From Escherichia phage BA14: DNA of 39,816 nt. Positions 6,301-39,816 of the stretch are shown piece by piece. Each line of letters starts with the position of its first letter. Position 1 is the stretch's first letter. The notes under the pieces are model-generated. The model was given only the letters and a program-made list of their open reading frames with translations. It was not told the origin of the DNA and made no database searches. The stretch is taken from the sequence record NC_011040.1; one strand, written 5' to 3'. The translations under genes were made by a program, and so were the position numbers.

Positions 6301-6343
6301 GTTAAACTCAAGGTCATCACTTCTGGTGGCCTTCATGATTAAC
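6301..6343 (+). promoter_or_regulatory. RNase III-type processing hairpin (R1.1 position)
   Basis: Lower stem GTTAA/TTAAC, internal loop, upper stem AAGGTCAT/GTGGCCTT; same element recurs at 6821 and 13571. Confidence 0.6.
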
Positions 6344-6820: not shown

Positions 6821-6862
6821 GCTAAACTCAAGGTCATCTATACGGTGGCCTTTGTGATTAAC
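6821..6862 (+). promoter_or_regulatory. RNase III-type processing hairpin (R1.3 position)
   Basis: GCTAAACTCAAGGTCATctatacGGTGGCCTTTGTGATTAAC, second copy of the 6301 element. Confidence 0.6.
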
Positions 6863-13570: not shown

Positions 13571-13611
13571 GTTAAACTAAAGGTCATCTCCGGGTGGCCT
13601 TCGTGATTAAC
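13571..13611 (+). promoter_or_regulatory. RNase III-type processing hairpin (R4.7 position)
   Basis: GTTAAACTAAAGGTCATctccgGGTGGCCTTCGTGATTAAC, third copy of the 6301/6821 element, immediately upstream of a phage promoter. Confidence 0.6.
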
Positions 13612-36111: not shown

Positions 36112-36122
36112 TGGTAATACTC

Positions 36123-36146
36123 AAGGCCACTACATCTAGTGGTCTT
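36123..36146 (+). promoter_or_regulatory. RNase III-type hairpin (R18.5 position)
   Basis: AAGGCCACTA-catc-TAGTGGTCTT, 10-bp stem, between gene 18 and gene 18.5. Confidence 0.5.
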
Positions 36147-36209
36147 TATGAATTATCAACACAACTCACGGTGACGCTACGTGAAATCTGAGAAATGGGG
36201 AGGGTAGTT

Positions 36210-37227: not shown

Positions 37228-38985
37228 ATGTCTACTCAAGCAAACAAGAATGCGCTCATCGTGGCGCAACTTAAGGGTGACTTCGTGGCCTTCCTGTTCG
37301 TCTTATGGAAGGCTCTGAACTTACCTAAACCAACCAAGTGTCAGATTGATATGGCACGTACACTCGCTAACGGCGACCACAAGAAGTTTATCCTTCAGGC
37401 GTTCCGTGGTATCGGCAAGTCCTTTATCACCTGTGCGTTCGTTGTGTGGGTCTTATGGCGTGACCCTCAACTTAAGGTGCTCATTGTGTCTGCCTCTAAG
37501 GAACGTGCGGACGCTAACTCCATCTTCATTAAGAACATCATTGACCTGCTGCCATTCCTCGCTGAGTTGAAACCTCGACCGGGACAGCGTGACTCTGTGA
37601 TTAGCTTCGACGTTGGCTTGGCGAAACCCGACCACTCACCTTCTGTGAAGTCTGTGGGTATCACTGGTCAGTTGACTGGTAGTCGTGCTGACATCATTAT
37701 CGCAGATGACGTTGAGGTTCCCGGCAACAGTTCTACAAGCTCTGCTCGTGAGAAGCTGTGGACACTGGTAACTGAGTTTGCTGCGTTACTTAAGCCGTTA
37801 CCTACCTCTCGCGTTATCTACCTTGGGACACCTCAAACCGAGATGACTCTCTATAAGGAACTTGAGGATAACAAAGGGTACAGCACAGTAATCTGGCCAG
37901 CACAGTATCCACGCAATGACGCTGAGGCTCTCTACTATGGCGACCGACTGGCTCCTATGCTTAAGCAAGAGTATGATGAAGGCTACGAGATTCTTCGTGG
38001 ACAACCTACTGACCCTATTCGATTCGATATGGATGACCTCCGTGAACGTGAACTCGAATATGGCAAAGCTGGCTACACTCTTCAGTTCATGCTCAACCCT
38101 AACCTGTCCGATGCTGAGAAGTACCCGCTGAGGCTCCGTGATGCCATTGTGTGCGCAGTGGACACTGAACGTGCCCCATTGTCCTACCAGTGGTTGCCGA
38201 ACCGTCAGAACCGCAATGAGGAACTTCCTAACGTGGGTCTGAAGGGTGACGACATTCACAGCTTCCATGTGTGTTCCTCTAAGACCGCTGAGTACCAGCA
38301 AAAGATTCTCGTCATTGACCCCTCTGGTCGTGGTAAGGATGAAACGGGTTACGCAGTCCTCTACACCCTGAATGGCTACATCTACTTGATGGAAGTCGGT
38401 GGGTTCCGTGGTGGCTACGATGACCCTACCCTAGAGAAGCTCGCTAAGAAGGCCAAGCAGTGGAAGGTACAGACGGTCGTACACGAGAGTAACTTCGGTG
38501 ATGGTATGTTCGGTAAGGTATTCTCTCCGGTTCTCCTGAAGCACCACAAGTGTGCCTTAGAAGAGATTCGTGCTCGTGGCATGAAGGAGATGCGTATCTG
38601 CGACACTATCGAACCGTTGATGGGCGCACACCGCCTTATCATCCGTGACGAAGTAATCCGTGAGGACTACCAGACCGCTCGTGACCTTGATGGGAAACAT
38701 GATGTTCGCTATAGTGCGTTCTATCAGATGACCCGTATGACTCGTGAGAAGGGCGCTGTGGCACACGATGACCGACTTGATGCTATCGCATTGGGTATCG
38801 AGTTCCTTCGTGAAGGGATGCAGGTGGACTCTAAGGTGGGCGAGGAAGCTATGACACTTGAGTTCCTTGAACACCACATGGAGAAACCTATCATCGGTGG
38901 TGACATGGCTCGTGAGTTAGTGTCTGGAGGTGTGGACATCTACTATGAGGACGATGGCGATGGAGAGTGCTTCATTGAGTGGTAA
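37228..38985 (+). CDS. 19: Terminase large subunit (gp19)
   Basis: 585 aa, RBS TAGGAGG; Walker A-like FRGIGKS and extensive collinearity with T7 gp19. Confidence 0.97.
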
Positions 38986-39072
38986 TAGATAAGTATGCGG
39001 GAAAGGTGCATAGGTAAGCACTTAGTACCGCTACGTTATCATCAAGTAACTTACTGATATACATGAAGAAAT

Positions 39073-39095
39073 TAATACGACTCACTATTGGGAAG
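39073..39095 (+). promoter_or_regulatory. Phage RNAP promoter TAATACGACTCACTATTGGGAAG (phiOR-like)
   Basis: T7-family promoter downstream of gene 19, oriented toward the right end. Confidence 0.85.
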
Positions 39096-39180
39096 GGCAC
39101 CCTAAGACAACTTAAAGACACTTATAGACTGCATATTCAAAGTGCATACTTAGTGACTACTCTTAGAGACCCTTACAGTG

Positions 39181-39210
39181 AGGGATGATAGTAATTGTAA
39201 TTACATCCCT
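39181..39210 (+). other. Stable stem-loop in the leader of gene 19.5
   Basis: AGGGAT-gata-GTAATTgtAATTAC-ATCCCT: outer 6-bp and inner 6-bp stems. Confidence 0.4.
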
Positions 39211-39251
39211 ACTAACAGTGTAACCATCAAGTATAACAAGGAGGACGCTCT

Positions 39252-39407
39252 ATGCGCTTACTATCCGTGCTCAAGACACTGGCAACGCATCGAGTGACCT
39301 ACAAATTTCTCGTTGTACTTGCTGCTTCCATTGGTCTCGCATCTAGTGCTGAACACATCGGTGAACTGGAGACTCTGCTTTGTTCTCTACTCACTTGTGT
39401 TTCTTAG
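39252..39407 (+). CDS. 19.5: gp19.5 small protein
   Basis: 51-aa ORF with RBS AAGGAGG; HRVTYKFLVVL resembles T7 gp19.5 as I recall it. Confidence 0.7.
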   Translation: MRLLSVLKTLATHRVTYKFLVVLAASIGLASSAEHIGELETLLCSLLTCVS

Positions 39408-39575
39408 GCTACTCATTGGCGCTTAGTGCGCTCTTAGTGATTATGGTCGATATACATCTTCCCTATAATCACTGTAAGAAGTCAACTCTAAGAGTATCCC
39501 TTATGTACCCTCTATGGTCTACAGGGTCTCTTAGGGTCTCACCTTATGATAGAGCCTCTGTGGTTAACCTTATGA
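39405..39575. repeat. Array of CTCTTAG/CCTTATG heptamer repeats just inside the right terminal repeat
   Basis: CTCTTAG/CTCTAAG and CCTTATG copies at roughly 39430, 39487, 39499, 39528, 39542 and 39568, mirroring the left-end array. Confidence 0.6.
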
Positions 39576-39622
39576 GACTTGATGTACCCTTTAAGAATCC
39601 TACAGAAAAATCTGAGTGGGTA

Positions 39623-39816
39623 TCTCATAGTTCATACAAAGTGTTTACCCCCTATGGCCTCCTTCAGTTCCCCAAAGAGTGCCACCCCTTATGGTAACTT
39701 ATGGTTTACTTAATGTCAATCATTATGTGAGACATTGGGTGAATCATTGGGATGACCACTAGATATAGTGTGTGGGAGACCTTATGACCACTATATGTAG
39801 TCCTCTCTGTGTCCCT
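39623..39816. repeat. Right direct terminal repeat (exact copy of 1-194)
   Basis: Identical to bases 1-194. Confidence 0.95.

Follow-up and report, generated by a model that had tools for sequence, protein, structure and literature searches.

Several kinds of hairpin are described for the T7-like phages and their hosts. Stabilising stem-loops of 5' untranslated regions (5'-UTRs), such as that of the Escherichia coli ompA leader or the +1 stem-loop of T7 late transcripts (e.g., the phi10 leader), are short stable leader helices acting by structure. The T7-type RNase III sites (R0.3, R1, R1.1, R1.3, R4.7, R18.5 and others) are leader or intergenic hairpins without a U-run, often located soon after a phage promoter. 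The class I terminator of T7, Tphi, and bacterial intrinsic terminators also form a stem-loop in the transcript. The T7 M-hairpin (Chung, Nardone and Hinkle 1990; Kim and Chung 1996; Kim, Kim and Chung 1997) is a DNA hairpin end in concatemer processing, linked to a conserved inverted repeat by gene 19.5, between phiOR and the terminal repeat. These elements are compared here with a hairpin at positions 39181-39210 of Escherichia phage BA14, a complete T7-like genome of the Berlinvirus group (39816 base pairs (bp); this whole stretch is referred to below as the window). The hairpin lies in the leader of gene 19.5.

The preferred interpretation, to which a probability of about 0.4 is assigned, is that the hairpin may be a conserved RNA stem-loop in the leader of the 19.5 mRNA, acting as a structural stabiliser or insulator and not as a cleavage site. 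The window reads AGGGATGATAGTAATTGTAATTACATCCCT at 39181-39210, and a sequence check together with a repeat search found both of its inverted repeats, AGGGAT/ATCCCT and GTAATT/AATTAC, to be exact. The original prediction counted an interrupted stem of 12 bp, which is too many: the maximum is 11 pairs, because a loop of 2 nucleotides (nt), GT, cannot form. According to the minimum free energy (MFE) fold, the RNA contains 7 bp (AGGGAUG/CAUCCCU), a bulged A at 39188, 4 bp (UAGU/AUUA, one of them G-U) and a 7-nt loop, and it can be extended by AGU/ACU (39177-39179 with 39211-39213). The parts of the hairpin are as follows.

39177-39213, plus strand: the hairpin with its possible 3-bp outer extension AGU...ACU, from the RNA MFE fold.
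39181-39187, plus strand: 5' arm AGGGATG, G-rich and Shine-Dalgarno-like, 100% complementary to 39204-39210.
39188-39203, plus strand: AT-rich apical region ATAGTAATTGTAATTA (88% A+T), folding into the bulged A, four weak pairs and the 7-nt loop.
39204-39210, plus strand: 3' arm CATCCCT, complementary to the 5' arm and included in the covariation count.

The 30-nt RNA has a folding energy of -10.0 kcal/mol (z = -3.24). For the 42-nt RNA (39175-39216), the energy is -12.6 kcal/mol (z = -3.07), and 2 of 200 shuffled sequences fold equally well. In a chance test confined to this genome, two window sites with 6-bp stems and AT-rich loops of 10-20 nt were found against a mean of 2.6 in shuffles. 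No similar hairpin stands out elsewhere in the window or in T7, and none follows the phiOL or primary-origin promoters. Taken alone, the hairpin of a single genome is not beyond chance and is weak evidence; it is more than chance because it is conserved in relatives.

For the comparison, the annotated records of T7, T3, K1F, phiA1122, Kvp1 and Yepe2 were used together with 80 IMG/VR loci encoding relatives of 19.5. In nearly every lineage compared, a hairpin is located 19-45 nt before the 19.5 start codon. It is present in Berlinvirus, T7, T3, K1F, the Klebsiella Przondovirus, the Dickeya Ninurta-like and the Yersinia AP10-like phages, and in the metagenomic contigs L038 and L056. The stems are complementary in each case and differ in sequence from group to group.

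Berlinvirus: GGGATG/CATCCC, with the same core in nearly all Berlinvirus relatives.
T7, T3 and the metagenomic contigs L038 and L056: GGTGAT/ATCACC.
T7-related group (L017 and others): GGTTGT/ACAACC.
Klebsiella Przondovirus: (A)GAGGGT/ACCCTC(T).
Yersinia phage AP10 group: GAGGGT/ACCCTC.
Dickeya phage Ninurta group: GGATGG/CCATCC.
K1F: GGAGGT/ACCTCC.

Judging from these sequences, the pairing is kept by compensatory changes in at least seven genus-level groups, so that base-pairing potential, whose absence from related genomes would have spoken against the original prediction, is conserved. The folds of the individual lineages surpass their own shuffles (z from -1.3 to -3.8), with the exception of Yersinia phage fPS-59. 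In the relatives, the apex is always AT-rich, 10-19 nt long, and carries the related motifs ATTAT or ATTGT; these shared apical motifs support the homology of the hairpins.

In a hand-registered alignment, 136 of 138 cells of the core six pairs can pair, a proportion that is partly circular because the arms were located by complementarity, and which to that extent counts for less in favour of the RNA stem-loop. Five of the six pairs change on both sides; the exceptions in the core are one C-A in L035 and one U-G in L065, the latter itself counted as a standard pair. The covariation score was 0.617 as compared with 0.213 in column shuffles, none of 500 reaching 0.617, and it did not exceed 0.25 with slid partners. 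Equal-length constructs with artificial anchors were aligned (3 flank + 6 arm + 4 + 4 loop edges + 6 arm + 3 flank), because the MAFFT program put the arms of different clades out of register, and this anchoring limits the independence of the pair count. The informative point is that different complementary arms occupy one homologous place.

In the T7-related L017 group, about 12 nt were lost between the hairpin and the ribosome-binding site; the hairpin, which there abuts this site, is intact, and its continued closeness to the site counts in favour of an RNA role. In the Przondovirus leader, the 5' flank next to the hairpin is the most variable stretch. In two loci (L054 and L059), an unrelated hairpin was found at the equivalent position. 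Taken together, the alignments show that selection has kept the pairing of a G/C-rich stem of 6-7 bp, capping an AT-rich apex, at 19-45 nt before the 19.5 start in many T7-like phages.

The same data bear on the possibility that the hairpin has no function, being a palindrome maintained by arm-to-arm template-switch correction or the relic of an old Shine-Dalgarno region. The number of comparable hairpins expected per genome by chance alone (about 2.6) agrees with such an explanation, as do the loss of the hairpin from one lineage (fPS-59), the inverted copies described below, which reveal template-switch activity, and the Shine-Dalgarno-like 5' arms (e.g., AAGGAGGTGAT in K1F), which could represent a decayed translation start. 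In T7, most positions near the genome ends also tolerate insertions (PMC11482910). However, at least seven genus-level groups, difficult to align in the rest of their non-coding DNA, keep a hairpin at this one position, and its core pairs are almost never broken while the adjoining 5' flank varies more than any other part of the Przondovirus leader. A functionless palindrome is considered quite improbable.

The placement of the hairpin between a phiOR-type promoter and gene 19.5 was confirmed, and the approximate distances of the original prediction proved to be correct: the hairpin is located 91 nt past the putative transcription start (39090) and 41 nt before the ATG of 19.5 (39252). The features that define this leader are listed below.

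39073-39095, plus strand: phiOR-type promoter for the phage RNA polymerase, TAATACGACTCACTATTGGGAAG, an exact match to the consensus, with +1 placed at 39090 from the T7 promoter consensus.
39238-39244, plus strand: Shine-Dalgarno sequence of gene 19.5, AAGGAGG, read from the sequence, with a predicted 16S 3'-end duplex of -11.4 kcal/mol.
39252-39407, plus strand: gene 19.5, a listed open reading frame (ORF) of 51 amino acids (aa), small membrane protein family, 47% identical to T7 gp19.5.

The promoter sequence at 39073-39093, TAATACGACTCACTATTGGGA, is the last copy in the window of the consensus TAATACGACTCACTATNGGGA, which occurs 11 times against 0.01 expected by chance. The homologous promoter is annotated as phi19.2 in the Kvp1 record and as phiOR in the Yepe2 record, and phiOR of T7 is annotated as well. 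The hairpin is on the transcribed strand downstream of this consensus and hence would be contained in phiOR-type transcripts.

Under the RNA stem-loop interpretation, transcripts from the phiOR-type promoter, and presumably late read-through transcripts as well, would carry the stem-loop. The AU-rich upstream leader may be cut first, after which the stable helix would block decay dependent on the 5' end. The helix could also prevent the variable and repeat-rich upstream leader from pairing with the ribosome-binding region of 19.5, which is A-rich and unstructured. In this way, the stem-loop might contribute to the very high level of 19.5 transcript reported for T7. According to Jack et al. (bioRxiv 10.1101/647024), 19.5 gives the most abundant late transcript in wild-type T7+, and this is not the case in a laboratory-adapted strain. 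Like the 5'-UTR stabilisers, the 19.5 hairpin is compatible with a high steady-state level of mRNA. Unlike them, it is not at the very 5' end: at 91 nt from the putative start, it would become 5'-proximal only after the presumed cleavage of the leader.

The RNA form of the hairpin is reasonably stable (from -9 to -16 kcal/mol), whereas its folding as DNA is weak: -5.8 kcal/mol in the window and -3.3 kcal/mol in T7 (range from -3.3 to -5.9; z from -1.5 to -2.8). Arms of 6-7 bp separated by a spacer of 13-19 nt are poor cruciform formers. Of 15 representatives, 11 fold slightly better on the transcribed strand than on the opposite one, which also favours RNA. A search of the literature on T7 transcript-end maps gave nothing usable.

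Several observations weigh against an RNA-level role. The mean gain in stability of the transcribed strand over the opposite one is small, only about 0.6 kcal/mol. Single-sided changes in the stem are few and split between the one U-G (L065) and the one C-A (L035), giving no clear strand-specific signal. The loop sequence is fairly conserved, more so than a purely structural role requires. Arm-to-arm template switching in a DNA inverted repeat can also produce compensatory changes, and 3 of 40 Klebsiella Przondovirus contigs (IMG/VR counts, loci L088-L127) have the hairpin in flipped form, evidence that DNA-level events occur at this site. The region hosts known DNA-level cis elements, namely, the secondary replication origin, packaging signals and the M-hairpin. 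For Yersinia phage fPS-59 (L014), folding gave no convincing hairpin (z = +0.3), which indicates that the element is dispensable in this lineage. Finally, the accessible literature yielded no experiment on the 19.5-leader hairpin.

The main rival interpretation places the function of the hairpin in DNA: it would be a cis element of the replication and packaging region at the right end, accompanying the M-hairpin and acting in single-stranded or transcribed DNA downstream of phiOR. Such an element might, for example, mark or prime concatemer processing or origin firing, or bind a phage protein. The phiOR of T7 also serves as a secondary replication origin, and transcription from it proceeds in the direction of the concatemer junction. 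The comparison of this possibility with the RNA stem-loop involves a second, larger hairpin located 3' of 19.5 and the terminal repeat.

39436-39473, plus strand: larger hairpin 3' of 19.5, AGTGATTAT...ATAATCACT, an inverted repeat with DNA folds of z = -4.4 and -4.3 on the two strands.
1-194 and 39623-39816, strand not applicable: direct terminal repeat of 194 bp, copies 100% identical; these exact repeats at both ends indicate that the window is the full-length genome as packaged.

This downstream palindrome is found about 30 nt past the 19.5 stop codon and is conserved in every lineage examined. Its T7 counterpart (39568-39608) is a long imperfect palindrome with 19-nt arms and a 3-nt spacer, 30 nt past 19.5, and the T3 counterpart is at about 575-615 of locus L084. 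The stem covaries, being AGGGAT/ATCCCT in T7, T3 and Przondovirus and AGTGAT/ATCACT in the window. The centre of the palindrome is 190 bp to the left of the terminal repeat in T7, 184 bp in T3 and about 169 bp in the window. The T7 value agrees with the mapped hairpin end, which we take to be about 190 bp to the left of the T7 concatemer junction. In the window and in Dickeya phage Ninurta, the loop of the downstream hairpin contains TGGTC, a recognition sequence of the T7 primase.

Heineman, Bull and Molineux (PMC2680503) described T7 gene 19.5 as having an "adjacent M-hairpin", which was deleted together with 19.5. The same paper states, with reference to Kim and Chung 1996 and Kim et al. 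1997, that deletion of the M-hairpin impairs concatemer processing. A further paper (PMC4281155) notes that T7 infection gives rise to a hairpin DNA in which the terminal repeat is included. On sequence grounds, the downstream palindrome (T7 39568-39608; window 39436-39473) is probably the published M-hairpin, and, if it is taken as such, the upstream hairpin is a different, unannotated element.

Since PMC2680503 says only "adjacent", the upstream hairpin, 41 nt from the gene, could also be identified with the M-hairpin already published for the T7 group, and would then not be new. This is very improbable, given the far longer and nearly perfect palindrome that T7 has 30 nt past 19.5 and that is conserved in all lineages. 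The latter is where a covalently closed duplex end would naturally turn around, and its centre at 190 bp in T7 matches what we take to be the mapped M-hairpin end. The upstream hairpin, with arms of 6-7 bp, a spacer of 13-19 nt and a DNA energy of -3.3 to -5.9 kcal/mol, is unlike such a turnaround. It also differs from the M-hairpin, most likely located downstream of 19.5, in being upstream of the gene, short-armed and weak as DNA, although the two partly share stem motifs (AGGGAT/ATCCCT and GGTGAT-like).

For a DNA-level companion of the M-hairpin, this sharing is one of the favourable points. In nearly every lineage, a conserved hairpin stands on either side of gene 19.5, and PMC2680503 and PMC4281155 tie the M-hairpin adjacent to 19.5 to concatemer processing. 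The upstream stem of the window, AGGGAT/ATCCCT, is the outer stem of the downstream palindrome of T7 and T3. The upstream GGTGAT/ATCACC of T7 resembles the inner GGTaTGAT/ATCAcACC of the T7 downstream palindrome, and the 9-mer GTAGTGATG is common to the upstream hairpin and the downstream palindrome of Przondovirus. The shared motifs could mean a common binding factor, an exchange between the hairpins or a coincidence.

Inversions of the hairpin point in the same direction. Between L043 on the one hand and L044, L047 and L073 on the other (positions 596-624 of each), the whole hairpin is exactly reverse-complemented with otherwise identical flanks, and the loop orientation of T3, K1F and AP10 is opposite to that of most Przondovirus. 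Together, these differences imply inversion at least twice, and both point to activity of the palindrome as a DNA substrate in vivo. The conserved loop motifs and the lack of a strong RNA-specific wobble signal also fit a role in DNA. At the same time, the hairpin is weak as DNA in comparison with the downstream palindrome (z = -4.4), and, by general DNA energetics, its short arms and long spacer extrude cruciforms poorly. The phiOL and primary-origin promoters lack a comparable hairpin. Phage fPS-59 has no upstream hairpin and retains the downstream palindrome. The Przondovirus flips are rare (3 of 40) and probably result from one event. On balance, a DNA-level cis element is a serious rival, if somewhat less likely than the RNA stem-loop.

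A more specific version, in which the upstream hairpin and the downstream M-type palindrome would form a matched DNA hairpin pair bracketing 19.5, is regarded as unlikely. The upstream member would then be a second cis site in concatemer processing and terminal-repeat duplication or in phiOR firing, and not an mRNA element. If this were true, the upstream hairpin would be an unrecognised site in the concatemer processing or phiOR origin firing of T7-like phages.

The original prediction suggested an RNase III cleavage assay, and a host RNase III site in the 19.5 leader was examined using T7 and internal controls. Ten T7 positions, which we take to be the RNase III sites of Dunn and Studier (1983), were folded. 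All ten show a GC-rich upper stem of 9-10 bp, an internal loop, a lower stem and the consensus CAAGG...CCUUUAUGAU, also given as CAAGG...CCUU(U/C)AUGAU. A regex scan of the window located six sites of this type, which correspond by position to R0.3, R1, R1.1, R1.3, R4.7 and R18.5 and served as internal positive controls.

About 993-1021, 2926-2955, 6309-6337, 6829-6856, 13579-13605 and 36122-36150: six RNase III-type hairpins, with the consensus CAAGG, a 9-10-bp stem, CCTT(T/C)ATGAT and a lower stem.

In general T7 biology, several late promoters are closely followed by RNase III sites. The flanks of the 19.5 hairpin can add a lower stem across an internal loop in T7 (CCUCUAAG...CUUAAGG), in the window and in some Przondovirus contigs (e.g., GUCUUAUAG...CUAUAAGAC in L042), giving a superficially RNase III-like appearance. 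These flanks are made of a common, nearly self-complementary motif of the CTTAnAG type. A conserved lower stem was rejected, as it occurs in some lineages only: the L017 lineage lacks its 3' half, and the Przondovirus flanks are the most variable part of the leader. A T7-type site was likewise rejected. The consensus is absent from 39150-39250, and, in place of the GC-rich upper stem of 9-10 bp, the hairpin has a continuous helix of only 6-7 bp with 2-4 weak AU or GU pairs. This is far below the length of about two helical turns preferred by the RNase III of E. coli. To our knowledge, the map of Dunn and Studier (1983) contains no T7 RNase III site at the position of the hairpin. RNase III as the acting nuclease is thus unsupported, both the consensus and the helix length being inadequate, and cleavage of the hairpin by this host enzyme is judged to be improbable to a high degree.

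The view of the original prediction that the hairpin is not an intrinsic terminator was borne out. The sequence directly after the stem, ACTAACAGTG, contains no U-run, and a terminator scan of 38950-39816 revealed no terminator-like site. In comparison with Tphi and intrinsic terminators, the stem is also shorter and weaker. A search of 38900-39816 against Rfam 15 gave two matches at chance level (E-values of 1.9 and 8.9).

Another candidate explanation is that the region encodes a small protein and that the hairpin is incidental. Gene "19.2" is annotated in Kvp1 as a 39-aa ORF beginning with a GTG just before the hairpin and in Berlin as a hypothetical protein, and the equivalent ORF of the window occupies 39178-39297, with its GTG start at the foot of the hairpin. 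This candidate was rejected: among close relatives, the ORF has 14, 19, 28, 39 or 60 aa, its length varying because of frameshifts and stop codons. No Shine-Dalgarno sequence was found before the GTG, and no counterpart in T7, T3 or other genera. The "19.2" annotation is probably an artefact, and the likelihood that a protein accounts for the hairpin is close to nil.

Mini-ORFs that begin within the loop, reading TTG-TAA in the window and TTG-TAT-TAG in T7 and beginning with an ATG in Przondovirus, were rejected since their starts are not kept: most Berlinviruses have TAG in place of the TTG, and the flipped Przondovirus variants lack the ATG. A translational switch, with the 3' arm pairing with the real Shine-Dalgarno sequence of 19.5, was also rejected, as it surpasses shuffles in K1F only. 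No sigma-70 promoter was found in the loop. The 5' arms themselves are Shine-Dalgarno-like, with anti-Shine-Dalgarno complementarity that ranks, for 9 of 10 lineages, among the top 0-7.5% of genome windows; for the 5' arm of the window (39180-39190 region), complementarity to the 16S 3' end is in the top 6.4%. The 5' arm of K1F (locus L086, 478-490) reads AAGGAGGTGAT, and the 3' arm of L056 (about 628-636) has ATCACCTCC. The 3' arms resemble the 3' end of 16S rRNA, and the 5' arms are not followed by a conserved start codon.

In the region of the hairpin, the BA14 genome is 96-98% identical to those of Salmonella phage LPST144, Kluyvera phage Kvp1, Escherichia phage 285P and Erwinia phage FE44. 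The leader upstream of the studied hairpin contains one more predicted structure.

39130-39146, plus strand: small upstream leader hairpin UGCAU aUUCAAA GUGCA, predicted in leader folds.

In these folding models, this hairpin is possibly a second leader structure. T7 carries TGCATaaagtATGCA at the equivalent place (39283-39297; TGCAT...GTGCA in the window), and possible counterparts occur in T3 and Przondovirus. Between the promoter and the studied hairpin, Yepe2 (L003, 676-760) has a tandem array of about six CTACTCTTAG(T/A)G(A/T) units, and the window (39150-39172) has roughly two. The match of the window to Berlin and Yep-phi falls into two parts, suggestive of a comparable insertion. The promoter-to-hairpin distance accordingly ranges from about 57 to 155 nt among the phages. 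In the left-end leader of the window (about 399-416), a short hairpin, TCCCT ccttat AGGGA, follows a phiOL-type promoter (353-373). Its arms are the AGGGA/TCCCT of the 19.5 hairpin in reversed order, which may be a coincidence.

With respect to its novelty, the hairpin is a new, unannotated instance of a familiar element, the conserved leader stem-loop, and not a new kind of system. A second covarying hairpin, conserved in most of the subfamily and missing from both annotations and Rfam, is a modest, incremental finding that would not surprise a specialist. One consequence concerns annotation, since "gene 19.2" of some Berlinvirus records is probably not a gene. The hairpin is also relevant to engineered T7 genomes, in which the 19.5 leader is often treated as a dispensable spacer. 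No part of the T7 genome is less well understood than gene 19.5 and the surrounding DNA. The gp19.5 protein is small, non-essential and linked to lysis timing, and the neighbouring M-hairpin is tied to the way in which T7 duplicates its terminal repeat during packaging. In this part of the genome, the hairpin offers a concrete and cheap target for separating the control of 19.5 expression from a role in replication or packaging.

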